Notes under the pieces: generated by a model
Database searches by the model: none
Told to the model about the DNA's origin: nothing
Seen by the model: the letters and a program-made list of their open reading frames with translations, nothing else
Shown here: piece after piece, positions 3,036-54,600 of the stretch
Numbering within the stretch: the first letter of the stretch is position 1
How the letters are laid out: every line of letters begins with the position of its first letter
Position numbers and translations under genes: made by a program
Assembly: GCF_035084215.1 (NCBI RefSeq)
Contig: NC_090346.1
Coordinates: 14,384,001 to 14,448,000, forward strand
DNA length: 64,000 nt
Direction of reading: 5' to 3'
Source of the DNA: Heptranchias perlo
Lineage: Eukaryota

Positions 3036-3386
3036 TCATGGAGGGTATATGCATGAATTAAGTTCATTGCATCATTTAATCCTCAAGAATACTCCCCTTG
3101 ATTTAGAAAGATGAGACGAGGCTGGAGAGGGGGGCCAAATTACTTTGTACTCATCCTAATAATATCTCCAAAGTTCTACAATATGCAATCACAATTGTTT
3201 TTAGGGCAGTATTTGTGCAGCCAAGAAGGGCAATTTAGCCTAATAGCTAGGTATACCTCTAATCTAATTTTTAACAGGCAGGAGGAAAGTCATGTGAATG
3301 GTGGTTTCTCTTTGTTTATTTGCTGTTGGAGTAGGGTTGCCAACCCTCCAGGATTGTCCTGGAGTCTCCAAGAATTGCAGGTTAAT

Positions 3387-3480
3387 GGGTATGGTAGCAT
3401 AGTGGTTATGTTACTGGACTAGTAATCCTAGAGGCCCGGACTAATCATCTGGAGTCATGAGTTCAAATCCTGTCACGGCA
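3387..3480 (+). promoter_or_regulatory. tRNA-derived Pol III internal promoter (A and B boxes) heading the LINE
   Basis: A box TAGCATAGTGG at 3395-3405, anticodon-like arm CTGGA-CTAGTAA-TCC(T)AG at 3414-3431, B box GAGTTCAAATCC at 3459-3470. Confidence 0.8.
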
Positions 3481-6400
3481 GCTGGGGAATTTAAATTCAA
3501 TTAATTAAATAAAATCTGGAACTAAAAAAACTAGAATCAGTAATGGTGGCCATGAAACTACCGGATTGTCGTAAAAACCCATCTGGTTCACTAATGTCCT
3601 TTAGGGAAGGAAACCTGCCGTCCTTACCCAGTCTGGACTATATATGACTCCAGACCCACAGCAATGTGGTTGATTGTCAATTGCCCTCTGAAATGGCCTA
3701 GCAAGCCACTCAGTTGTAAAATCTCGCTTAAAAAAGTCATAATAAGAATAAAACCGGATGGACCATCTAGGCACCGGTCACGACAAAGGCAAACCAAGCC
3801 CAGTCGACCCTGCAAAGTCCTCCTCACGAACATCTGGGGACTTGTGCCAAAATTGGGAGAGCTGTCCCACAGACGAGTCAAGCAGCAGCCTGACATAGCC
3901 ATACTCACAGAATCATATCTTTCAGCCAACATCCCAGACTCTTCCATCACCATCCCCGGGTATGTCCTGTTCCACCGGCAGGACAGACCCACCAGAGGTG
4001 GCGGTTCAGTGACATACAGTCAGGATGGAGTAGCCCTGGGAGTCCTCAACATTGACTTTGGACCCCATGAAATTTCATGGCACCGGGTCAAACATGGGCA
4101 AGGATTACCACCTACCGTCCTCCTACCGTCCTCCCTCAGCTGATGAATCAGTCCTCCTCCATGTTGAGCACCACTTGGAGGAAGCACTGAGGGTAGCAAG
4201 GGCACAGAATGTACTCTGGGTGGGGGACTTCAATGTCCATCACCAAGAGTGGCTTGGTAGCTCCACTACTGACCGAGCTGGCCGAGTCCTGAAGGACATA
4301 GCTGCCAGACTGGGCCTACTGGCAGGTAGTGAGCGAACCAACATGAGGGCAAAACCTATTTGACCTCGTCCTCACCAATCTACCTGTTGCAAATGCATCT
4401 GTCTATGACAGTATTGGTAGGAGTGACCGTGACCACAGCACAGTCCTCGTGGAGATGAAGTCCCGTCTTCGCACTAAGGACACCATCCAACGTGTTGTGT
4501 GGCACTATCACTGTGCTAAATGGGATAGATTCAGAACATATCTAGCAGCTCAAAACTGGGCATCCATGAGGCGCTGTGGGCCATCAGCAGCAGAATTGTA
4601 TTCCAGCACACTCTGTAACCTCATGGCCTGGCATATTTCTCACTCTACCATTACCAACAAGCCAGGGGATCAACCCTGGTACAATGAGGAGTGTAGAAGA
4701 ACATGCCAGGAGCAGCACCAGGCGTACCTAAAAATGCTATAGACAGAGCTAAGCGATTCCACAACCAACCGATGAGATCAAAGCTCTGCAGTCATGAATA
4801 GTGGTGGACAATTAAACAACTAACAGGAAGAGGAGGGTCTGTAAACATCCCCATCCTCAATGGTGGCTGAGTCCAGCACGTGAGTGCAAAAGACAAGGCT
4901 GAAGCGTTTGCAACCATCTTCAGCCAGAAGTGCCGAGTCGATGATCCATCTTGGCCTCCTCCTGATATCCTCATCATCACAGAAGCCAGTCTTCAGCCAA
5001 TTCAATTCACTCCCCATGATATCAAGAAACGGCTGAGCGCACTGAATACAGCAAAGACTATGGGCCCTGACAACATCTCGGCTGTAGTGCTGAAGACTTG
5101 TGTTCCAAAACTAGCCGCGCCTCTAGCCAAACTGTTCCAGTACAGCTACAACACTGGCATCTACCCGACAATGTGGAAAATTGCCCAGGTATGTCCTGTC
5201 CACAAACAGCAGGACAAATCCAATCTGGCCAATTACCGCCCCATCAGCAAAGTGACGGAAGTTGTCGTCGACAATGCTATCAAGCGGCACTTCCTCACCA
5301 ATAACCTGCTCACCGATGCTCAGTTTGGGTTCCGCCAGGACCACTCGGCTCCAGACCTCATTACAGCCTTGGTCCAATCATGGACAAAAGAGCTGAATTC
5401 CAGAGGTGAGATGAGAGTGACTGCCCTTGACATCAAGGCAGCATTTGACTGAGTGTGGCACCAAGCAGCCCTAGTAAAATTGAAGTCAATGGGAATCAGG
5501 GGGAAAACTCTCCAGTGGCTGGAGTCATACCTAGCACAAAGGAAGATGGTAGTGGTTGTTGGAGGCCAATCATCTCAGCCCCAGGACATTGCTGCAGGAG
5601 TTCCTCAGGGCAATGTCCTAGGCCCAACCATCTTCAGCTGCTTCATCAATGACCTTCCCTCCATCACAAGGTCAGAAATGGGGATGTTCGCTGATGATTG
5701 CACAGTGTTCAGTTCCATTCGCAACCCCTCAGATAATGAAGCAGTCCGTGCCCGCCTGCAGCAAGACCTGGACAACATCCAGGCTTGGGCTGATAAGTGG
5801 CAAGTAACATTCGCACCAGACAAGTGCCAGGCAATGACCATCTCCAACAAGAGAGAGTCTAACCACCTCCCCTTGACATTCAACGGCATAACCATCGCCG
5901 AATCCCCCGTCATCAACATCCTGGGGGTCACCATTGACCAGAAACTTAACTGGACCAGCCATATAAATACTGTGGTTACAAGAGCAGGTCAGAAGCCGGG
6001 TATTCTGAGGCGAGTGACTCACCTCCTGACTCCCCAAAGCCTTTCCACCATTTACAAGGCACAAGTCAGGAGTGTGATGGAATACTCTCCACTTGCCTGG
6101 ATGAGTGCAGCTTCAACAACACTTAAGAAGCTCGACACCATCCAGGACAAAGCAGCCCGCTTGATTGGCACCCCATCCACCACCCTAAACATTCACTCCC
6201 TTCACCACCGGCGCACAGTGGCTGCAGTATGTACCATCCACGGGATGCATTGCAGCAACTCGCCAAGGCTTCTTCGACAGCATCTCCGAAACCCTTGACC
6301 TCTGCCACCTAGAAGGACAAGAGCAGCAGGCACATGGGAACAACACCACCTGCACGTTCCCCTCCAAGTCACACACCATCCCAACTTGGAAATATATCGC

Positions 6401-6592
6401 CGTTCCTTCATCGTCGCTGGGTCAAAATCCTGGAACTCCCTTCCTAACAGCACTGTGGGAGAACCTTCACCACACGGACTGCAGCGGTTCAAGAAGGCGG
6501 CTCACCACCACCTTCTCAAGGGCAATTAGGGATGAGCAATAAATGCTGGCCTCGCCAGCGACGCCCACATCCCATGAACGACTAAAAAAAAA
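3387..6592 (+). mobile_element. Near full-length APE-RT non-LTR retrotransposon with tRNA-derived 5' head; disrupted ORF
   Basis: APE motifs (TNIWGL, PDIAILTESYL, VGDFNVHH), RT motifs (QFGFR, LDIKAAFD, GVPQG, FADD), 3' AATAAA and A tail at 6584-6592. Several frameshifts, stops and deletions. Confidence 0.93.
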
Positions 6593-6809
6593 TGTGATGA
6601 AACCTCCAGGAATACGTCCAACCAGAGTTGGCAACCTTATGTTGGAGACACTCGTGTGTTTCCTCCATCCCTATTACCACACCGCTGTATAAATGGAGGG
6701 GAGTTCTGTGTCTCCCACAGTGTCCAGGTCCCAAATTCCCTCTATTCCTATGATAACATGCTGTTGGAGACATTGGAAAATGTGAACCTACATCATTCCT
6801 CTTCAAAAT

Positions 6810-7585
6810 TAGGGTTCAAAATATAGAAGATTAAGGGGTGATCTAATTGAGGTGTTTAAGATAGTTAAAGGATTTGATAGGGTAGATAGAGAGAAACTAT
6901 TTTTTTCTGTTGGGGGAGTCCAGAACAAGGGAGCATTACCTTAAAATTAGAGCTAGGCCAGCCAAGGGTGATGTCAGGAATCACTTCTTCACACAAAGGG
7001 TAATGGAAATCTCGAACTCTTCCCACGCCACCCCAAAATGCTGTTGAGGCTTGGGGTCAATTGGAAATTTCAAAATTGAGATTGATAGATTTTTGTTGGA
7101 AAAGGGTATTAATAGACATGGAACCAAGGCAGGTAAATTTAGTTGAGATACAAATCAGCCATAATCTAATTGAAAGATGGAACAGGTTTGAGGGGCTGAA
7201 TGGCCTACTCCTGTTTCTATGTTCCTAAAATTATGAGGGGTTGTGATAGAGTAGATAGGGAGAAATTGTTTCCACTGGCAGGAAGGTTGGTAAGCAGAGG
7301 ACAGAGATTTAAGATATTTGGCAAAGGTACCAGAATTAGTCAAGGAGAATTTTTTTTTTACACAGCGAGTTGTTATGATCTGGAATGCACTTCCTGAAAG
7401 TGTGCTGGAAGTAGATTCAATAGTAACTTTCAAAAGGGAATTGAATATATACTCAAAAAGGAAAAATTTGCAGGGCTATGGGGAAAACGTGGAGAATGGG
7501 ACTAATTGAATAACTCTTACAAAGTGCCGGCACGGGCACAATGGGCTGAATGGCCTCCTTCTCTGCTGTAAGACTCTATGATTCC
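6810..7585 (+). mobile_element. Two tandem CR1-type LINE 3' fragments (~6810-7225 and ~7226-7585)
   Basis: CR1 C-terminal coding remnants ([11 protein letters not shown]; FFTQRVVMIWNALP). Each ends in the gggctgaatggcct tail. Confidence 0.8.
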
Positions 7586-7967: not shown

Positions 7968-8250
7968 GTCAGAGGTGCTGACTTTAGGATGAGATGTTAA
8001 ACCAAGGCCCCGTCTGTCCTCTCAGATGAATGCACGAGAGTTCTCCCCTGGGTCCTGGCCAATGTTCTTCCCTCGACCAACATCACTAAAATAGATTATC
8101 TGGTCATTTTCATGTAGGACCTTGCTGTGCATAATCTGACTGCCATGTTTGCTTGCATAATAATAGAGACTGTACTTGAAAAGTAATCTATTAGTTGTGA
8201 AATGCTTTTGGACATCCTAAGGAGGAAGTAAGATGCTATATAAATGGAAG
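7968..8250 (+). mobile_element. DeuSINE (SacSINE1-like) fragment
   Basis: Deu-domain-like core ggatgagatgttaaaccaaggccccgtctg...gtcctggccaat with an L2-like tail. Confidence 0.7.
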
Positions 8251-39600: not shown

Positions 39601-42600
39601 ATAAGACCATGAGAGATAGGAGCAGGAGTAGGCCATTCGGCCCCTCGGGCCTGCTCTGCCATTTAATGAGATCATGGCTGATCTGATTTTTACCTCAACT
39701 CCACTTTCCTGCCTTTTCCCTATATCCTTTGACTCTCTTGCTGATCAAAGATTTGTCTAACTCAGCCTTGAATGTATTCAATGACTCAGCCTCCACAGCT
39801 TTTTGGGGTAAAGAATTCCAAAGATTCACGACCCTCCGGGAGAAGAAATTCCTCCTCATTTCCATCTTAAATGGGCGACCCCTCATTCTGAGACTACGTC
39901 CCCTAGTTTTAGATTCCCTCATGAGGGGTAACATCCTCTCAGCATCTACCCTATCGAGTCCCCTCAGAATCTTGTATGTTTCAATAAGGTCGCCGCTCAT
40001 TCTTCTAAACTCCAATGAGTATAGACCCAACCTGTTCAATCTTTCCTCATAAAACAATCCTTCCATATCCGGAATCAACCTAGTGAACCTTCTCTGAACT
40101 GCCTCCAATGCAAGTATGTCCTTCCTTAAATAAGGGCACCAGAACTATACGCAGTACTCCAGGTGTGGTCTTACCAGCACCCTGTACAGTTGTAGCATGA
40201 CTTCCCTGCTTTTATACGCCATCCCCTAGAAATAAAGGCCAATATTCCGTTTGCCTTCCGGATTACCTGCTGCACCTGTATGTTGATTTTTTGTGTTTCA
40301 TGTAAGAGGACACCCAGATCCCTCTGTACCGCAGCATTTTGTAGTATTTCTCCATTCAAATAATATTTTGCTTTTATTTTTCCTCCCAATGTGGATGATT
40401 TCACATTTTCCCACATTATATTCCATCTGCCAAATTTCTGCCCATTCGCTTAACCTGTCAATATCCCTTTGCAGACACTTTGGGCTCGATTTTACCGTCG
40501 GGTTTCCAGCGGGGGGGGCCCCGAAAATCCCGATATCCAGTCACGTGACCGGATCGCGCCGAGATCCCGGCCACTTCCGGGTGCCGCGCTGACGTGCGGG
40601 GCTGCGTGCGCAGGCCCCGCTGGTGGGAATCCCGCAGGCAATTAAAGCCAGCGGGGTTCCACTTGAGTGTACTTACCTTGCTTGTTGAGGTCATTAAATG
40701 AGCTGAAGCAGCTGTCAAAACAGGAAGTGTGGGATTTTAGGTTCAAGGCAGTGTGTTTCACACACTGGGGGAAAACAGTCTCCCTTCCACCGGTCGTGTT
40801 CCAGCCAGCAGCCTGTGGCAGCTGCCAAGGTGCACTCCACAGCGGGTGGGAGAGCCCTCACCCACGCAGGAGGCCACCGCGTCACGTAGGGCAACCCCTG
40901 CCCTCCACCACCCCCCGCCAAGCCAGAGGACAGACCGACGTGAAACCGCAGCCCCAGTGCGAGGAACCACCTACCTACCCTGCACAACCCCTCAGACCAA
41001 CACCTGCCAGATGGGTGGTGCGTTGACATCCTCGGAGGACGAACAGCATGACCAGCCCCAGCAGCCTCGCAGTCCACCTCTGACACGTGGAGCTCCACAA
41101 CAGAGTGCTGTGACACATCCACCTGTACAGCAGGAGGGAGGGCTACCGCAGAGAGAGACGCGTCGCAGAGGGCACTACCCTCCGCACAGGGTCCACAGAC
41201 CGAGGCACAGCTCCCCGGACCTCTCTGAGCAGCAGTGCACACGGAGGCGCAGATTCACTCGACATGTAGTCGTGGAGATCTGCAGGCTCTTTCATGCCGA
41301 GCTGCTCCTGGCTGGCCCCAGCACCATCTGCTTACCTGTCGCTGCCAAAGTCACCACTGCCCTCCACAACTTCTCCTCCGCATCCTTCCAGGGTGCAGCC
41401 GGGTACACCGCCGATGTCTCTCGGTCGTCTGCGCGGAAGAGCCCTGCAAATACACCTGCACCTACTCTGCAGTAACACAATGGGTGGCATCAGTGGTGGG
41501 TCCTCAGTGATACCCAGGAGCGGGCATTATTGGACACAACAGACAGGATTCGCGGAGACATGGCAGTGGTGGTGCCAATATAATGTGTGATGTTTGCTTC
41601 TCTGAAATTCAATATAGGTAACACCCATGGCAAACCCTCAGACACCCTTGTGCATCCCCTTCATGCTCACGACACGTTTGCCGTACGCTGCCTACTGCAC
41701 GTATGCGATGCATGCCCTGTGGCTGCAGCACAGGTGGTGGCAGGTTGAGTGAGGCTGGCCGTGAGAGAGATGCACGAGAGGGTGAGTATGGGATAGAGCC
41801 ATGAGATTGTATGAGGATTGGGTTGCGTGTTAGTGGCGGGTGAGTACTGGCGAGGTGAGTAGGTGCAGGTAAGATGAGGATGGGGTTTGAGTGGGTATGA
41901 GGGGTGATGTGACAGAGTAGTGTTGGCGGTGCCAAAGGAGATGTGGGGTGGGGGCAGTGTTGTGGCAGACGGAGTGTAGGGGAAAGACTACGTGTTCTCA
42001 TTGTGGCTGACCTACTGAGGTCATTGGAGCGCCTCCTGCACTGTATGCAGGTGGGCGATATGTTGGTGGTGCAGGTGACCCCCTCTGCCACCTCGAGCCA
42101 GGCCTTCTTGGTGGCAGAGGCAGGCCGCTTCCTCCCGCCCACTGGGTGGAAGATCTGTGTCCTCCCCCTCCTCCTCACCCCATCTGATGATACCTGGGGT
42201 GAGGCATCATTAAACTGGGAGCAGCCTTCCCCCTGGGCTGCTCCGTGCTGTAATTTGTTCCATTGGTTGCAGCATGTCAGTGGAGGACTGCCCCTTTAAG
42301 TAGAGAGCCTCCAGCTGACAGATCGTACTGCGCATGCGCAGCCCGCCCGACGTGCAGACCAGCAGCGCGGAACCCAGAGGAGCAGGTAAGTGATTCCAAT
42401 TAGTGGATTGCCTGCTACGATCGCGCGGGCAACCCACTAATTTCACCGGGCGCGGAGGCCACGCACCCGAAACCCAACCCGTCGGAAACCCGCAGGCCTG
42501 CTAAAATCAGGCCCTTTGTGTCCTCATCGCAACTTGCTTTTCCACCTATCTTTGTATCAGCAGCAAATTTGGCCACAAGACACTCTGTTCCTTCATCCAA

Positions 42601-45600
42601 GTCATTGATATATATTGTAAATAGTTGAGGCCCCAGCACTGATCCCTGTGACACCCCACTAGTTACAGATTGTCATTTTGAAAATGACCCTTTTATCCCG
42701 ACTCTTTGTTTTCTGTTAGTTAGCCAATCCTCTATCCATGCCAGTATATTACCCCCAACACCATGAGCTCTTATCTTGTGCAGTAATCTTTTATCTGGCA
42801 CCTTATCGAATATCTTTTGGAAATCCAAATATGCTGCATCATTTTATCCATCCTGCCCGTTACTTCCTCAAAGAGCTCTAATAAATTTGTCAGACATGAT
42901 TTCCCCTTCATAAAACCACGTTGACTCTCCTTGATTGTATTATGAGTCTCCAAATGTTCTACTACTACTTCCTTAATAATGGATTTTAGCATTTTCCCCA
43001 ATGACAGATGTTAGGCTAACTGGTCTATAGTTACCTGCTTTCTGTCTCACTCCCTTCTTGAATAGGGGTGTTACGTTTGCGGTTTTCCAATCCGCTGGGA
43101 CCTTTCCAGAATATAGTGAATTCTGGAAGATTACAACCAATTACCAGTGCCCTCCCCCTCACCTTGGGAGAAAACTTCTGGCCTCAAGTGCCAACCTCCT
43201 CTGGGAAATTCCTCCCCAGCATAAGGTAATCAAGTAAATCTTAACCTTTGGAGGCACAGCTAGTTGGTGCACACATACACTGTGCCATCATGCCACAGTA
43301 ACACACATTGATTTTCAAAACCATCTATGCAGATGTTGACAAGCAAACTAGTAGGGCTTCTTTGGTACACAAAGCAGGATTAAAAAAAGATGCAGTTAGA
43401 GACAAGGTGAGATCGCTCACAACTTGAACCTGGTAGTTGGGAGCAGAGTAATTTGTTGAAATTATAACAGGGTACTGGATAGGCAAGTCAGATTTCCTCA
43501 TCTTGCAGTTCAGCAAGTTATTGGTAAAAATCTGGCAGAGTGTGAAATCCCCATCAATTCTTGTAAATGTTTACACTTACTGCATTTGGCACGATTTGTT
43601 ATCCAACTACTGTACTTTGAATTAAAAATATGGAGACAGTGAAAATGCAGGTTTCTGAGCAGATCAGAGCAAGAAGAAACTGCTTGCCACAATAAATCAC
43701 TTACCCTGGTGATAATTAATTCTGCAATTGAACTTCTCCACACAACGGAGAGAGGTTTAGGTGTCAATACTGACTGGAAGAGATCTAAAACTGTAAAAGG
43801 TTACAGCACAGAAGGAGGCCACTTGGCTCATTGCATTGGTGCGAGCTCTTTGCTGGAGCAATCGTAAACTAATCCTACTGCTCTGCTATCCGCCCCCCCC
43901 AATAGCCCTGTATCTTCCTCTGCTTCAAATATTTATCCACTTTCCCTTGAAAGATGCAATGGTCTCTGCCTCAACTAGTCCCTGTGACAAAGCATTTCAT
44001 GCTCCAACAACTCGCTGTTTCAAGAAATTTCTGCTAACCTCTCTTTATTCTTAGTGACTATTTAAAATTGAGAACTCTGATCACTGACACCACAACTAGA
44101 GGAAATAGTCTTTTCCTATTCATCCTAAAGAAATCCTTCAATGGTTTAAAAAAAACCTCAAATCTCCTTTTGGCCTTCTCTGCTCCAGAGGAAATAGCTC
44201 CATAATTGCAGCTTCTCTTGCAATCCTGTCTTAAAACATGAAAGTCTGGCAGTTCTAAGGGTTGTGGCTACAAACCATTGCACACTGTTTTTGCATGGCA
44301 GAACTAGCCAGTGACATTTAGGAACTATAGTGGTGAAGTGCAACACATTTCGCTCAGTATTTTAGTTTCATGCTCAACCTGTTGCAAATGAGGAAAACCT
44401 TTTGCAGAAGACAGCAGGCAGCTAATCACTCACCTCTCATACCGAAGGAAGACATTATTAAGATCATCGTTAACGTGCAAAAGTTCCTCTGTGATCTCTT
44501 CATTGGTTACATTGGAGAGAAGTTCCACAACCCGTTGCTGCATCGCTCGGCATGTATGGTTCAGTTCCTTGTTCAAAGAGCACAGGACATGTTAATCAGT
44601 TCTTTGTCACTTGAAGTACAATAAAACAAAGGTTACTTTTTTGTTGAATGTACATTTTCATCAAGGCAATGAAGATCAGCGAATTGAAAATAGGTATTAT
44701 TTTTTGCTTGTCTCAGTATCATATCAAGCAGTCCCGGGGTGGGTAACGCACAAGAATTGCCCCTAAAACGCTTAACTTCAGGCCATCTGTGTGAATTTTT
44801 TTCATTTCTCACATGAGTCATCCTTATGGCTTCTGGGTCAGGCTGTCAATTTAGTGACAATCTGTGCTGAATTATGAGGCATTTCAGCACCTCTTCAGAG
44901 GTCAAGACCGCCTCAGACCCTGGTACCCTGACGGCTTACATTACAGATGACTTTCATCCTAATTGGATAACCATTTGAAAAGGATGAATGTAAATGATAC
45001 TGGTAAAAGACAAGGAAATGGAATTAGAGTAGATAGCTCCAGTTGAAGAGTGATGGGCCAAATGGCTTCCTTCTGTGCTTTATTTTCTATGACTTTGTGT
45101 GGACTGGATTCAGATCCTAGAGAGGAGAGTGTTCCAATGCACTCAAAACAGCCACCCTCCATTAAAACAGCAACCTCATGTCACTTATTCTAACAGTATG
45201 TTTCAACCATCTTATGAAAAGATGGCTTAAACTCTGGACACCTGAATAAGCCACGAGGCTGCATATAGACTGTACGGCAGATAATATCAAGTTGTCCTAT
45301 TGGAGAACTCGTAGATATTGAAAAATTCTCTTGAGTTAGAAGCAATCTAAAATTTAGAGAATTTAGCCTCGACATTAATGAGATGTGGATCCCTGTTTTA
45401 TTACAGTTTGGTACTATGCAGTAGAAACACTCTTTTGTGTAAAATGCAACTCTCAAATAAATTCAGTATTCTTACCTGCAGCAACTCAAAGTCCGATTGA
45501 TTTTCCTGTCCAGGGACTGTTTCAGTCAGCATCTCAGACATCACTTTTGCATTTCCACGGACAACATCCAGCTCGCTGCGCAACCTGGCAAGCTGCCATA

Positions 45601-48600
45601 CAAAAGGCTCAACTTAAAACAAAGGGTAAACCCTTAGATTAGCCAACACAGGTTACATTGCAAACACAGAAACAGACTCACTCACACATTGAAAAGCCAG
45701 AAGGAGGTTAGAAGTTCTTTGCAGCAGGCTGATTTTAGTCACTATTCACCAATTGGACTTTAAGAAAAAGACAGACTTGCATTTATATAGCGCCTTTTAC
45801 AATCTCAGGATGTCCCAAAGCACTTTACAGTCAATTATGTACTTTTGTAGTGGTCACTGATGTAATGTAGAAAATGAGGAGCTAATTTGCACACAGCAAG
45901 CTCCCATATCAGCAATGAGACAATAACCAGATAATCTGTTTATTTAGTGATGTTGAAGGATAAATATTGGCCAGAACACCGTGGAGAACTCCCCTGCTCT
46001 TCTTCGAAATAGTGCCATGGGATCTTTATCATCCACCTCACAGAGTAGATGGGGCCACGGTTTAACGTCTCATCTGAAAGACAGCACCCCCGACAGTGCA
46101 GCACTCCCTTAGTACTGCACGGGAGTGGCTCCTTTCCTCACAATGAATGATCTTTTGCTGGGTGTTGGGCATTGTATCTTTAAAGCAACAGTACGTCAAT
46201 CACGTATGAACAATTTTTTTAAAAATCACCCAAAAAATAACTTTTGTGACTTTCTGCCGATCAAGGTGAGGGATGATAGCGCTGAGAAATGGAACACTTT
46301 CCCATTCCAGACACCAAGTATCAGCAATAAAAACTTCCAAGCCAAGACACAGATTGAAGTATCCTTCCAAGAATGTGCCTTGGCCCCTTCAGAAAAAAGA
46401 TAATCCCTACTGCACCAATCCAATATCACCCCCTACACCAAGTCTTACATCTTGAGCGACACCTCCCTCGCAGTGCTAAATCAGGGGTAGTTGTATGCTG
46501 TGGATCCATGCCAGTTAAGAATTGGATGGAGACTGTACGACCTCATTTTGTGTAGATCCTTATCTAAAATGCCCTCCATGACATCACCCACCCTACCGCT
46601 GCAACCTCCTCCAGCAGCCTTATATTCCACCTTGTACCCTCCATTTGTGCAGGGCTGACCTACTGTATGTTCCCCCTCCCTCTCGACGGCAGAGCCTTCA
46701 GCCATCACACACCCACTCTCCAGAACTCACTCCTTAAACATCTCCATCCTGCAACATCTCTCTCCACCTTCAAAAGCCTCTTCAAAACTTATTTCTTCAA
46801 CTGTAGATTGTCACCTGCTGTTAACCCTTTTCCTAAGTCCTGTAACAGTGTCCTTTTCTTCTCCAACTCCTCCTGTGAGGTACCTTGCATCGTTTTGCAA
46901 CATTAAAGGCGTTATATAGGTGCAAGTTATTGCTGACCTTTACAGCCAGTAAATTGATGAGGCTTCATTTTGACAGCCAGTCCTATGGGTGTAAGGCCAG
47001 TGTCTAACCCACTGCACCAACCCAGTCATACTCCATTTTCCTGATACTGTATCATAACAGACAGACATGATGAGTCCAGCATCACATCTTCAGAGCTGGC
47101 TGGAGCAAAAGCCAGCAGGAAGAAATGGTTTGAAGTGCGCTACTCCACTACTTAAACAACTCGTGCATTACCTGTCCCACAGGAGGGGTTAAAACAACTA
47201 AAAGTACGTATAACCCATTGATGTCCAAGGCAGAATGTACACCATATCATTAACTGTCAAGATAAATTATTATTTGCACTGATTTTGAAAATAATAAATG
47301 CTCCACTATTCTGCTTTCTGTATGGATAGAGACCTGAGATGTCTACAATGAAGTATGCAAGCTTTGGCAGGATATAGTCTCAATTTTTGGCACCTGGTCA
47401 GCATTTGCAGTGATCGGTCCAGTTACATGTACAGCTGGAAGGCCTTGAGGGACTGAATAGGTGGTCAGCGTGGACGGTGCAGATGGAAAGCTGTTTGTGG
47501 AAGTGGTTTTCTGCAGGGACTGAGGTATTGGTTTGTTCATTGCAGGATCGACCTCAGGAATAAACTGCAATTGAAAAAAATATATTCACATAATTGTATG
47601 GATTCTATATACTTAAGTGTAATATGTAGCAATGTTTGAACTTCAATAGCTTCCATTTTTGGACGAAGTTCACAATGAATGTTAATAATCATTTTCCAAC
47701 TTCTGGCAAAGCAACCATATTCCCTCGTTGGTGCAAAGTGAGTTAAGATCCAATGGCTCATCCGGCTGAATCACTGTGCATTCTCAAAATGAGTGCTCTT
47801 TTTAAATTTAGCGTTTCAACAATGACATAATAAGTTTTCAAAGCATAGCATCAAATCTACCAAAAATCCTGAACAAACATGCACAGAATAGACCAGTTAC
47901 AGTGATGGCAACATAAATTGAAAGCGGAGGCATCCCTAAACAAACGTGGAAATGCACAGAAACTCTAGAGCATAGATAATGATGAGGCTCTATAACTACA
48001 CTCAGGGTGCACAGAAGCAACATCAGTTAGTGTATTTCAGAAATGTCAAGGAGCCAAGACTTGTAAATGGAAAAAATCTTTTTCCCAGATGAAGATAAGC
48101 TCGACAATTGCAGTATTTATTCTGTGGATTTATAAAAAACATAACTTGAAATTTGGCAACCAATCTGGAAGCAGATCATCCTCATTTCAAAAGGAAATAA
48201 TTAATTCCAACATTCTACACATCCAAACCAAAATTATTGATTGTCCCCATTATGAAAGGCAGGGTTAGTTCTGTTGAGGTAATCTGCATGCAGATGGAAT
48301 ATAATTTTATTTTCATTCTTTTGAAAAATAAATGTGGAGATAAACTGGGGAACAGATTGCTGAATTTTCTTAATTAAATGGCTGCAATATGTAATCTACA
48401 CCAAAGATGGCATTCATTACCATATTGACAAACATATAAGCTGCACACCAAGTTAAACCTCTCCCATAATAAAAGGCAGCCCCCTGTGCTTTTTAAAGTA
48501 GGTGTTAACCTGGACCAATGTTCCCATTAAAATAGTGAGAAAGGAGTTTGATACAAATATACTAATCATTTGTATCATTCTTTTGCATCATTTCCAGCTA

Positions 48601-51600
48601 TTATTATTAATTCACCTATTGGCTGCATATTCAAGTTCAACAACTGATTTTTTTTTGTCTTTAACAAAATGCAGTCTATATGCAAGTTAATACTTGGAAG
48701 CATCCGGCTAATAACACACTGGCACATGTTAAAGCTTACTCTCCCTGGTGTGTGTATTGGAGACAGTGCATCCAGGTCTGCCATTGGGAATTCCATCCCT
48801 TTTCTCTTTAACTCTTCATAAATATGAACTACTCCAGTCAGATCTGGACTACTCCTGAAAGCATCAGCCCAAGCCTAGGAGTGAAGACACCAAGCATCAG
48901 AATCTTTCCAACACACATGGAAGATTAATAATTGTCACTGCGCAAATTCTTATAATGACCTGCTATGTCGGGTCTCTGCTCCTTTTAAATTGCCAGGGAA
49001 TTCCCGGTTTCAACCAAGGAGCAGAGCAGGGCATGCATCTACAATAGGTGCAGGCCCACTATTCCACTGTTAATAAGGCCGAAGGGGATGTTCCCAGTCT
49101 TGCATCTAAATCTCCTGTGGTTGCAGCCTAGGGGCACAGAAATGCAGGACTGTCCCAAGAGGTTGGTGGTGGGCCTTGCACTGGGACTGACACCAAGTCT
49201 GGGTACAGCTCAGCTTGGACAGTGCAGCACGCTTTAGGGATGCCTCACTTGTCCAGCAACCAGGCAGGGAGTGATGGGGGTGCCAGAAAAATCGGCCCCC
49301 AAACGTGGGACCTTCTGGTCATGATGTCTTAGTACAGTACCATACTACACTGCACATTCACGCACTAAGCCATTGAGGGAGCTTAATGGCAGAACGATGC
49401 AACTGGCTGATGAAATTCCACTTTGGCACTCAATGTTACCCAATGGGCACTCACTAAAGAGCAGTTAAATTAATAAGTTAAATTAGTGGCTTTCACTGAA
49501 CAACAAACCACGTTTATGACATACCAGCTAATCACTCGTGGTGTTACTTATGGGTAATATGGGGTCTGAAGTGCAGTTGTATTATTTATCTGCTAACCTG
49601 GTCCATCGCTTTAAAGCTTTTACTCAGGTATTCCCAGGAGGAATGGTCTAAATTGGACCTGAAGTCCATGAAAGGCTAATTATAGTTGGAAGTGATTTGT
49701 TGATGCTTTATGCCAAATATAACATCTCGAATGTGAAAGATGCTCTCAAAACTTTTATATGAATAAATAGATATTTGCACAATGAAGAAGCAATTTCACC
49801 GAATGTGTTTTTTAAAAAAAACACACCTGTATCAATCCAAGGACTTTATCCTGCACAATAGCTGGTGGATTATTCTTGGGTAAGACAATTTTTACCAATA
49901 CGCCATCAATGAAGTCACGGTTGGCTACAAGGACATGGAAACGATGACCACAGTTCTTAACACACGTCTCCAAAATCTAATTTTGAAAGTGAGACAAATG
50001 AAGTTATTTATTGAACTTAAACATGCAGCATTTACTCAATACCTCGCAACAAGTTAATCGGACAGCAAGCATGTGATAAGAACATTTTTTCTGCCCTTAC
50101 CCTATAAAACGTGGTGTAGTAGGAGTGTTACTTTGATTGAAGTTCAATTTTAAAAACTGCTCAAAGTTCTTCTTAGAGATTGCTGGTGGCAGAATTAGCT
50201 ATATTACGCCACTCTTAAGAATCTTACTGAAAACCCTGACAAATAAGTTACACAATTGACTTTTTATTCATTAGGTTTCAGGATATTCTAAGTGAAGGCT
50301 GACAATACTGGCAACTACTGCAAGAGCTTGGATTCTGAAAGCCCATTCAGACTCCCACATTCAATCTTCAAGAGACTAATTTTAGAGTCAAGGAATTGAA
50401 GTGGAGAAACAGTTGGTCTTAAATATCTTTAGCATGGTGGTCAAATATAGTAATTATCCAAACAAGCATTGGCTTGCATGTCATCTAAGAACCCTTTTGT
50501 TTAGTAAAATTCAAAGTAGTTTCAAGGGGCTTTGGGGTAAAAGCAATAGCTGCCGAAACAGGGTGGGAGGGGAGAAACAAAAGGTGACGAGCAATGAAGT
50601 ACACTTAGTTACTGCAGTGGAAGGGGTGCCTGCATGTGAAAAGCAGAAAATATTTTCACACACTTGTGGAATAGCGAGTGGATTGGACAAAGCGTTGCTC
50701 GTTAAACTGAGGCCCCATCTACCTGTTCAGCTGGATGTTAAATATCCCAGGGCTCTATACAATGCAAAGCATAGAGTTCTCTTGGTGTCCTGGCCAACAT
50801 TCAGCCCTCAACCAACACCAAAAACAAATTAACTGGTCATTCAGCTCATTGCTGTACGTGAGAATCCTGCACAAATTAGCTGCTGCGTTTGCCTACATAA
50901 CAACAGTGACTGCATTTTAAAAGTAATTTGTGCCAAGCAGTTGGAGACATTTCTCAGAGAGGTATATGAAAGCAATCTTTTTTTCTACTCACCGTTAAAG
51001 CAAGCATCACTTCCCGGTAGTTTTTGTTTCCACTCAGCCTTTTTTTGAGAGCCCTGATTGCATCCTTTGGCCTACAAAAAGGTGGATTTTTTCTTTTAAA
51101 AAGTCAGTTTTCCTAAGCAGGAGTGCAGCACAACATCAATTTTAATAGTGGAAGCAGGGTGATGGGAACCTGAGCAGGGAGACAGAGGAGGGGGAAACAA
51201 GGATAGAAACAAAAGACAGAAAGGGAAGAAGCAATAGTGGAAGGCAGAGAAAACAAGGGCGAAAAACAAATAGGGCCATAGTGCAAAATAAAACTAAGAT
51301 GACAAGCAATCTTAAAAAGACAAGTCTAAAGGCATTGTGTCTTAATGCGCGGAGCATTCGCAATAAGCTAGATGAATTAACAGCACAGATAGATATTAAC
51401 GGTTATGATATAGTTGCGATTACGGAGACATGGCTGCAGGGTGACCAAGGATAGGAACTGAACATCCAAGGGTATTCAATATTTAGGAAGGACAGCCAAA
51501 AAGGGAAAGGAGGTGGGGTAGTGTTGTTAGTAAAGGAGGAAATCAATGCAATTGTGAGGAAGGATACTGGCTCTGAAAATCACGATGTGGAATCTGTATG

Positions 51601-54600
51601 GGTGGAGATAAGAAACCCAAGGGGCAGAAAACGTTGGTGGGGGTTGTCTATAGGCCCTCAAACAGTAGTGGAGATGTAGGGGAGGGCATTAACAGGAAAT
51701 TAGAGACGCATGCAAGAAGGGTACGACTATAATCATGAGTGACTTTAATCTACATATAGATTGGTCAATCCAAATTAGCAATAATACTGTGGGGGAGGAA
51801 TTCCTGGAGTGTGTACGTGATGGTTTTCTAGGCCAATACGTTGAGGAACCAACTAGAGAACAGGCAATCCTAGACTGGGTATTGTGCAATGAGAAAGGAT
51901 TAATTAACAATCTTGTTGTGCGAAGTCCCTTAGGGAAGAGTGAACATAACATGATAGAATTCCTCATTAAGATGGAGAGTGAAGTAGTTGAATCCAAAAC
52001 TAGGGTCCTGAATCTAAATAAAGGAAATTACGAAAGTATGAGGTGCGAGTTGGCCATGATAGATTGGGGAACTTTACGAAAAGGGATGACGGTGGATAGG
52101 CAATGGCTAATATTTAAAGAATGTGTGCAGGAATTACAACAATTATTCATTCCTGTCTGGCGCAAAAATAAAACAGGAAAGGTGGCTCAAGCGTGGCTTA
52201 CAAAAGAAATTAGGGATAGTATTAGATCCAAAGAGGAGACATATAAAATTGCCAGAAAAAGCAGCAAGCCTGAGGATTGGGAGCAGTTCAGAATTCAGCA
52301 AAGGAGGACAAAGAGATTGATTAAGAGGGGAAAGAGTATGAGAGTAAACTAGCAGGGAACATAAAAACTGACTGTAAAAGCTTCTATAAATATGTCAAGA
52401 GAAAAAGATTAGTGAAGACAAAAGTAGGTCCCTTACAGTCAGAAATGGGGGAAATTATAATGGGGAACAAAGAAATGGCAGAACAATTAAACACATACTA
52501 TGGTTCTGCCTTCACAAAGGAGGACACAAATAACCTGCCAGAAATGTTAGGGAACCAAGGGTCTGGTGAGAGGGAGGAACTGAAGGAAACCAGTATTAGT
52601 AAAAAAAAGTGCTAGGGAAATTAATGGGGCTAAAGGCTGACAAATCCCCAGGGCCTGATAATCTACATCCCAGAGTACTAAAGGAAGTGGCCCTGGAAAT
52701 AGTGGATGCATTGGTGATCATCTTCCAAAATTCGATAGAGTCTGGAACAGTTCCTACAGATTGGAGGGTGGCAAATGTAACCCCACTATTTAAAAAAGGG
52801 AGAGAAAAAAAAAAACAGGGAATTACAGACCAGTTAGCCTAACATCAGTAGTGGGGAAAATGCTAGAGTCTATTATAAAAGATGTGATAACAGACACTTG
52901 GAAGGCATTAAAGGGATTGGACAAAGTCAGCATGGGTTTATGAAAGGGAAATCATGCTTAACAAATCTACTGGAGTTTTTTGAGGATGTAACTAGTAGCA
53001 TAGATAGGGGAGAACCGGTGGATGTGGTGAATTTGGATTTTCAGAAGGCTTTTGATAAGGTCCCACACAAGAGGTTAGTGCGCAAAATTAAAGCACATGG
53101 GATTGGGGGGGAATATACTGGCATGGATTGAGAATTGGTTGACAGACAGGAAACAGAGAGTAGGAATAAACGGGTCTTTTTCGGGGTGGCAGGCAGTGAC
53201 TAGTGGGGTACCACAGGGATCAGTGCTTGGGCCCCAGCTATTCACAATATATATCAATGATTTGGATAAGGGAACTAAATATAACATTTCCAAGTTTGCA
53301 GACGACACAAAGCTGGGGTGGAATGTGAGCTGTGAGGAGGATGCAAAGAGGCTCCAATGTGATTTAGACAAGTTGGGTGAGTGGGCAAGAACATGGCAGA
53401 TGCAATATAATGTGGATAAATGTGAGGTTATCCACTTTGGCTGTAAAAACAGAAAGGCAGTTTATTATCTGAATGGTGATAAGATTGGGAAAAGGGGAGG
53501 TGCATTGACACCTGGGTGTCCTTGTACACCAGTCGCTGAAAGCGAGCATTCAGGTGCAGCAAGCAGTTAGGAAGGCGAATGGTATGTTGGCCTTCATTGC
53601 AAGAGGATTTGAGTACAGGAGCAGGGATGTCTTACTGCAGTTGTATGGGGCCTTGGTGAGACCACACCTGGAGTGTTGTGTGCAGTTTTGCTCTCCTTAT
53701 CTGAGGAAGGATCTTCTCGCCATGGAGGGAGTGCAACGAAGGTTTATCAGACTGATTCCTGGGATGGCAGGACTGACGTATGAGTAAAGATTGAGTCGAC
53801 TAGGCCTTTATTCACTAGAGTTTAGAAGAATGACAGGTGATCTCATCGAAACATATAAAATTCTATCAGGACTAGACAGACTAGATGCAGGGAGGATGTT
53901 CCTGATGGCTGGGGAGTCCAGAAAGAGGGGTCACATTCTCAAGATACAGGGTATGCCATTTAGAACTGACATGAGGAGAAATTTCTTTACTCAGAGGGTG
54001 GTGAACCTGTGGAATTCTCTACCACAGAAGGCAGTGGAGGCCAAGTTATTAGATGTATTCAAGAAGGAGATAGACATATTTCTTAATGCTAAAGGGATCA
54101 AGGGATATGGGGAAAAAGCGGGAACAAGGTACTGAATTAGACGATCATTTTGAATGGCGGAGCAGGCCCAAAGGGCCGAATGGCCTACTCTTGCTCCTAT
54201 TTTGTAAGTTTCTATGTCAAAAATAAAAATTATGGCCGTCACATCAACTCATCCCACTCTCTGAACCAACAAATACAAATGCACCAGTGACCTCAGGTGG
54301 CAGCTAACAAATACTACAGCAGTTAGTGGCTTGGGTGATAGCAAAATCCAAACAGTTCGAGTAACTTAAACATATATTTGTGCATTGGGATTATCTTATA
54401 TCATTAAACCCACTTAGCTATGCGGATTCTTGTTGGTTTTAAGGTCTTAAACATTTGCCTTGTAATTAACTGTCCAGAATTAGTTTGATGTAAATAACAA
54501 GAAATCAGACATTGGATTCTTACATTCCTCCTACTTTAGTTCCTTTGTTGAAGTGCCACAATTGTACTTTCAAGGACACATGGAGCATTTTGGTTTTTGT

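Follow-up and report, generated by a model that had tools for sequence, protein, structure and literature searches.

The window, the whole 64,000-nt stretch of Heptranchias perlo contig NC_090346.1 analyzed here, holds on its forward strand a non-LTR element at 3387–6592 that lies inside a MITE of ~100 bp. The left (3332–3386) and right (6593–6639) arms of the MITE have inverted ends (3332–3344 and 6627–6639) alike at 12 of 13 positions, and its intact 8-bp target site duplication (TSD), TGTTGGAG, flanks them at 3324–3331 and 6640–6647, as the initial annotation had described. The inserted element begins with a tRNA-Gln-derived head (3387–3482, +1 G at 3387) in which the claimed A box TAGCATAGTGG (3395–3405, from the alignment with host tRNA-Gln), anticodon-like arm (3414–3431, from reading of the sequence) and B box GAGTTCAAATCC (3459–3470, the same in the majorities of the older and main subfamilies) are all present; between the two boxes the anticodon arm is duplicated over ~22 nt. 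The rest of the 5' module (3483–3719) is an AT-rich tract without TTTT followed by a non-coding body, not of the Deu type, that is predicted to pair back with the head and is found whole in SINE-sized deletions. A single APE-RT frame follows (3720–6529), which is broken in this copy and amounts to 967 codons in the family majority; it contains an APE endonuclease domain (3815–4445; Pfam PF14529/PF03372, with catalytic motifs) and a reverse transcriptase domain (5216–5932; Pfam PF00078). The APE domain starts at ~3815, 428 nt past 3387, and the statement that no room is left for an ORF1 holds. The 3' tail (6490–6592), common to the SINE-sized derivatives, ends in A9 (6584–6592). The copy is disrupted, again as noted before, by stops at 4344, 4799, 4868, 5450, and 6296, by a 64-nt deletion at 4734 and by 1-nt insertions. 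No TSD of the LINE itself is evident at this copy, and TSD lengths in 24 copies are as in the null apart from two copies, with 13 nt and 7 nt. The window also carries pieces of CR1-like LINEs at 42508–43140 (–) and 51140–54215 (+), with ~30% protein identity to the tRNA-headed family.

Window 3387–6592 is a decayed copy of a 3.3-kb shark LINE that has thousands of near-full-length copies. A query combining head and APE gave 6,656 candidates, of which 40 were scored, and in all 40 the head is joined to the frame at the same junction, with 89–93% identity, bearing out the prediction of a constant unit; 31 of 39 fetched copies reach the same 3' end within 3.6 kb, in unrelated flanks. In a sample drawn independently of the head (the first 40 matches of an APE 26-mer, from one contig), 36 copies have at least part of the 5' module; among these, 28 start no more than 40 nt from +1 and 19 start at base 1 or 2. 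The other four begin further in, one of them with a 5' inversion. Neither an alternative shared 5' region nor an ORF1, the latter a sign of an accidental joint according to the initial annotation, was seen among these 40 copies. Exact 26-mer matches number 6,086 for the 5' module and 8,913 for the start of APE, the mean divergence of copies from the majority is 3.7%, and the dispersed copies show 5' truncation, a common 3' end and no LTR. The family includes a younger subfamily and an older one, 12–17% from the majority, in which, at 7 loci, the head is likewise followed by APE. Contigs from four organisms span the entire unit (29–30 of 30 bins) and show the same SINE-type joints; in one of these contig runs, loose ends are found at the first G in 1,235 contigs. 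Pieces of the frame also occur, at 69–94% identity, among the annotated proteins of three shark genera. That a SINE and a truncated LINE came to lie side by side by chance at the window locus is extremely improbable, and this reading is rejected, since the junction recurs among unrelated flanks in both samples, the older subfamily has the same unit, and contigs of four organisms span it entirely; after the junction tests no point in its favor is left. We regard it as established that this is a LINE family whose standard 5' end is a tRNA-derived head, whose frame is AUG-less and which has SINE offspring. As a separate observation, family 31-mers are shared at 0.2–0.5 by at least nine organisms, through slow shark evolution or horizontal spread.

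The origin of the head is seen best in the older type. A pattern built from the head retrieves the host tRNA-Gln genes, and the older-type head of locus L214 is colinear with host tRNA-Gln (43 of 63 positions identical, score 63 vs a shuffle maximum of 44.5), which gives it the tRNA identity of at least 60% over at least 60 nt by which SINE2 elements are recognized. The alignment of the window head, across the ~22-nt duplication, is marginal (score 51 vs a shuffle maximum of 49), and neither ARAGORN nor Rfam calls a tRNA in the head. Relative to the +1 position of the tRNA, the first G is one base upstream. An extra 5' G can be left by a cap, as in L1; here G precedes GGG at the 5' start in 5 of 38 copies vs a 22% background, and there is thus no enrichment and no sign of a cap-derived G, in a comparison that has no control of its own. 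The B box is invariant (12 of 12) between subfamilies at 12% overall divergence, which is not significant, and A and B boxes in general indicate rather than prove the use of Pol III (PMC3531059). The 5' module folds better than shuffled sequences (z –4.4), and in the predicted structure nt 127–175 pair with the A-box region in a long helix that survives eight one-sided and three two-sided changes between two subfamily majorities; covariation is weak (term +0.42, double changes in 2 of 52 pairs, 15 copies). A tRNA-Gln(TTG)-type motif also forms a tandem array in the host genome (G000:C38:2.5–8.9 Mb, period ~3.1 kb, ~70 among the 100 matches listed).

An identity of the body with Deu or SacSINE1 was considered and rejected: the Deu motif (PMC5786205 supplement) finds a different family in this genome, with 7,765 exact motif matches. 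This motif is absent from the element, and the best BLAST match of four Deu-type SINE loci to the element has E 0.1. Copies of the Deu-type SINE are present in the window at 45775–46091 (–), 7975–8212, and 50700–50922 (78, 66, and 71% to L358). One short motif from a bivalve V-SINE, a single motif rather than the full V domain or HE1, is also absent from the element.

The family majority, built from 30 copies with two rearranged copies dropped, has 3,298 nt and consists of a 331-nt 5' module, 967 stop-free codons and a 66-nt tail. Two natural copies, L223 and L227, have the frame open over 974 and 973 codons, respectively, with the GDFN, SDH, PQG, and FADD motifs. Judged from its substitutions, the frame is under purifying selection between subfamilies: the young and main subfamilies differ by 21 synonymous and 10 replacement changes, and decay among copies comprises 909 synonymous and 1,570 replacement changes and 121 stops. 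The majority of the older subfamily covers only ~850–900 columns. Phylogenetic placement of the RT, part of the plan of the initial annotation, puts it in a well-supported clade of 930–990-residue APE-RT proteins from sponge, shrimp, lancelet, moth, and wrasse, with 40–50% RT identity and many of them on 3.2–4-kb contigs. The shark CR1-like frame L033 is 31% identical in the RT and stands apart from this clade (support 0.998), so that the family would fall outside CR1, in a placement made against relatives that carry no clade names rather than against labeled references. The RT motifs are presumably not those of RTE or Vingi. Matches in the PDB are limited to L1 ORF2p and R2, those in the Atlas to APE-RT clusters without names, and nothing was found in viral contigs. 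Many of the relatives sit on short contigs, and the lack of an ORF1 is therefore probably ancestral in the clade and not a consequence of the head. ARAGORN found no tRNA head 5' of the relatives' frames at 44 + 38 loci, in a search where it misses the shark head as well and many contigs lack the 5' end; its single call is antisense and inside L136. BLAST of the 5' module against the relatives gave nothing below E 0.01. Animal-type LINE contigs were also seen in many bacterial MAGs (L280–L356), most likely as host contamination.

The frame has no AUG where one would be expected. The APE motifs lie at codons 43–244, the first Met is at codon 251 in L223 and 250 in L227, and codon 281 is the sole in-frame AUG fixed throughout the family. 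For a working endonuclease to be made, translation therefore has to begin at a non-AUG codon; the clade relatives L133, L280, and L281 have a Met within 21 codons. No conserved near-cognate start codon was found in the leader. The length and the stops of the leader vary, and the true start may consequently lie near the APE border. In the young subfamily (L215, L223, and L227) there is a short duplication in the basic leader that precedes the APE domain. In 56 of 61 copies there is an AUG in a different frame at position 276 of the module; the older LINE majority does not have it. An upstream ORF from this AUG combined with a frameshift was rejected, with no conserved slippery site seen by eye and the AUG missing in the older majority.

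The suggestion that internal deletion of the LINE yields SINEs is borne out by SINE-sized head-plus-tail deletions with many different junctions. Exact patterns for head-tail joins have 204 and 25 matches, and most of 33 loci examined pair the module, ending at nt 327–351, with the last 75–110 nt at 81–98% identity. Among 30 loci that carry the older module, this is followed directly by the tail at 22 and by APE at one. Recurrent junctions come from amplification or from repeated deletion. The 3.3-kb APE-RT element itself lies outside the size (<1 kb) and non-autonomy of SINE2 elements, within which only the ~430-nt derivatives fall. Since the promoter would be internal to the LINE, a single internal deletion would suffice to produce a complete SINE. 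Among 81 3' tails, GAATTTT(T)AAAA replaces GAATAAAA in 10 (for example L037, L063, L066, and L244), and the AT tracts of L227 and L246 show the same A-to-T change, which probably reflects decay of A runs.

Runs of T are rare in the family. On the plus strand of 3387–6592 there is no run of four or more T (T4), as claimed, and the chance of this is P 0.006 by base shuffling and 0.05 under a first-order Markov model; the longest T4-free plus-strand stretch of the window is 3273–6899, and the runner-up has 1,799 nt. TTT runs, said to be common, are in fact few (12, vs 50 AAA, 42 CCC, and 35 GGG). The second T4-free stretch, at 40739–42537, is 59% GC, nearly without AAAA, and resembles another repeat. 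Among 32 copies, 18 have no T4, four have it in the tail only, and the rest have one to three. In the 3,298-nt majority there are 0 T4, 7 T3, 18 A4, 12 C4, and 7 G4 runs. The expectation that the consensus would be poor in T4 relative to codon-shuffled controls thus held in part, in that T4 is indeed zero but with P 0.11 in shuffles that preserve the protein and its codon usage; for zero T4 in the frame, P is 0.036 by base shuffling, 0.0065 with third bases taken from four-fold sites, and 0.145 under a Markov model. T3 in the frame is clearer, with 5 against 12.1 expected from synonymous shuffling (P 0.002), and A3, C3, and G3 are not depleted. Windows with four T in six are also depleted (8 vs 15.3 expected, P 0.003), in keeping with the termination of Pol III that has been described at degenerate T tracts (PMC3141230). 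Behind the B box lies a nearly pure A/T tract, which is T4-free in 36 of 38 copies matched. One T4-bearing tract belongs to the open-frame copy L227, and five of nine older heads have a T4; we read both as decay after insertion.

As controls we used 106 related LINE frames from other organisms with a long RT or APE frame (48 of 80 metagenome and 58 of 77 MAG loci), most of them richer in T or AT and many from few hosts. None of the 106 is free of T4 or as low in T3 per kb, and two are equally T3-depleted by z-score. Four relatives of equal T content have one to three T4 each, giving P 0.07 for zero T4 and 0.013 for T3. The CR1-like element at 51140–54215, for which at least six TTTT had been claimed, has nine runs of four or more T, and shark CR1-like frames have two to nine each; the one used as a control, L033 (2–2989, –), which we take to be a CR1 element, is open over 996 codons and has seven. 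The comparison of T4 between CR1 and the family is confounded because their base compositions differ. The T-specific depletion is real and of moderate strength, and the absence of T4 alone would be modest evidence for Pol III readthrough, and weak evidence under the nulls that preserve codons or match composition.

These features might also have arisen under Pol II. In this alternative, which we consider unlikely, the LINE acquired its head from a SINE through template switching, and Pol II transcribes it either from that region or from promoters of the host; the transcript would be capped, the T-poverty compositional, and the non-AUG start reached by scanning or reinitiation, by which other LINEs reach the start of ORF2. 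LINEs are defined as Pol II units (PMC3531059), an AATAAA lies ~45 nt ahead of the tail of the window copy, the upstream AUG 276 is common, and the T-poor relative L281 has a single T4 in 953 codons, as would be expected if few T4 came with low T content; moreover, RTE-1_DAn and elements related to it have a tRNA-like sequence for which the cited text of PMC5786205 makes no Pol III claim. Against this alternative stand the depletion of T3 and of near-T tracts, which exceeds what codon usage accounts for and is not seen for the other bases, a start that is fixed as in the geometry of a tRNA gene and lacks an extra G, and SINE-sized derivatives that are driven by the same module alone. The AUG at 276, furthermore, is absent from the older LINE majority.

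We put forward a hypothetical mechanism in which the family is transcribed by Pol III from its tRNA head and the RNA is translated cap-independently without an AUG. This is the best single account, because the head, the fixed start, the depletion of T runs and the missing AUG are explained together, and we give it about an even chance; that Pol III makes at least the template RNA is, in all, probable. We propose that TFIIIC binds the A and B boxes and that Pol III, starting at the first G, continues through all 3.3 kb, from which terminators and near-terminators would have been selected out, and stops at the first flanking T run. Ribosomes would be recruited by the structured 5' module to start at a non-AUG codon close to the border of APE, the protein would bind the last ~100 nt of the RNA, and target-primed reverse transcription from the short A tail would insert the new copy. 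The length of the unit counts against this proposal, since published SINEs are <700 nt, a size tied to the processivity of Pol III (PMC10886601). A division of labor, in which Pol III makes the template RNA and the protein comes in trans from a separate capped Pol II read-through RNA, would explain the avoidance of T runs without ribosomes having to use uncapped RNA, and it agrees with the action of the protein in trans on deletion derivatives. It would still require the non-AUG start, and purifying selection on the frame is easier to maintain with cis preference; we regard this arrangement as improbable. The fullest form of our proposal is a LINE made end to end by Pol III, translated from uncapped RNA at a non-AUG codon via its structured 5' module, and from which tRNA SINEs descend directly through a single deletion, with a SINE body that may serve as its translation element. 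We advance it tentatively, as falling just short of an even chance.

The divide between SINEs and LINEs is defined by polymerase and coding capacity (PMC3531059), and SINEs are described as unable to encode a protein (PMC5786205). If our proposal is true, a natural 3.3-kb coding Pol III unit breaks this divide, shows how an uncapped Pol III RNA gets translated in a vertebrate, and offers both a simple, observable route to new SINEs and a function for unexplained SINE bodies. Even under Pol II, this would be a tRNA-headed LINE outside RTE, Ingi, Vingi, and R2 that sheds SINE-like deletions at many junctions, which we did not find in the literature. The natural open-frame copies make the polymerase question testable by promoter and reporter assays. 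Our literature search found no description of the family or of a Pol III LINE, and six element motifs gave no papers; Repbase and Dfam, which lay outside this search, may name the family.

The nearest hint in the literature is the tRNA-like sequence of RTE-1_DAn and related elements (PMC5786205), likewise autonomous LINEs, which belong to the RTE clade and for which the cited text gives no T-run analysis, position of the tRNA-like sequence or polymerase. Single-frame APE-RT LINEs of the CR1/L2 (Jockey) group, including single-ORF L2 subclades (PMC7140322), are similar in having one frame, no ORF1, no consistent TSD and a short 3' end; no tRNA head was found in the single-frame relatives where their DNA was readable. 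A Pol III promoter derived from a small RNA is known outside the SINE class in the TRIMp3 elements (Cassandra, Helenus, and Ajax), but these are non-autonomous LTR elements of up to 1.3 kb without a coding frame (PMC10886601). The shark Deu-SINE SacSINE1, with L2-2_CM as tail donor (PMC5499810), shares with the family the shark host, a tRNA head and a tail in common with a LINE, although the Deu-type SINE of this genome has no significant match to the LINE described here. tRNA SINEs (SINE2) share the head, with at least 60% tRNA identity over 60 nt, the A and B boxes and a LINE-type tail (PMC3531059), whereas the shark LINE is 3.3 kb long and protein-coding. The bipartite non-autonomous elements (Bov-A and Bov-tA from Bov-B; SINE2-1_ACar from Vingi-2_ACar) also arise by an internal deletion that brings the 5' part of a LINE next to its 3' part, a derivation that the cited text reports only for RTE, Ingi, Vingi, and R2 (PMC5786205). 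There the tRNA head was added after the deletion, whereas the shark LINE itself carries the head, so that deletion alone gives head, body and tail.
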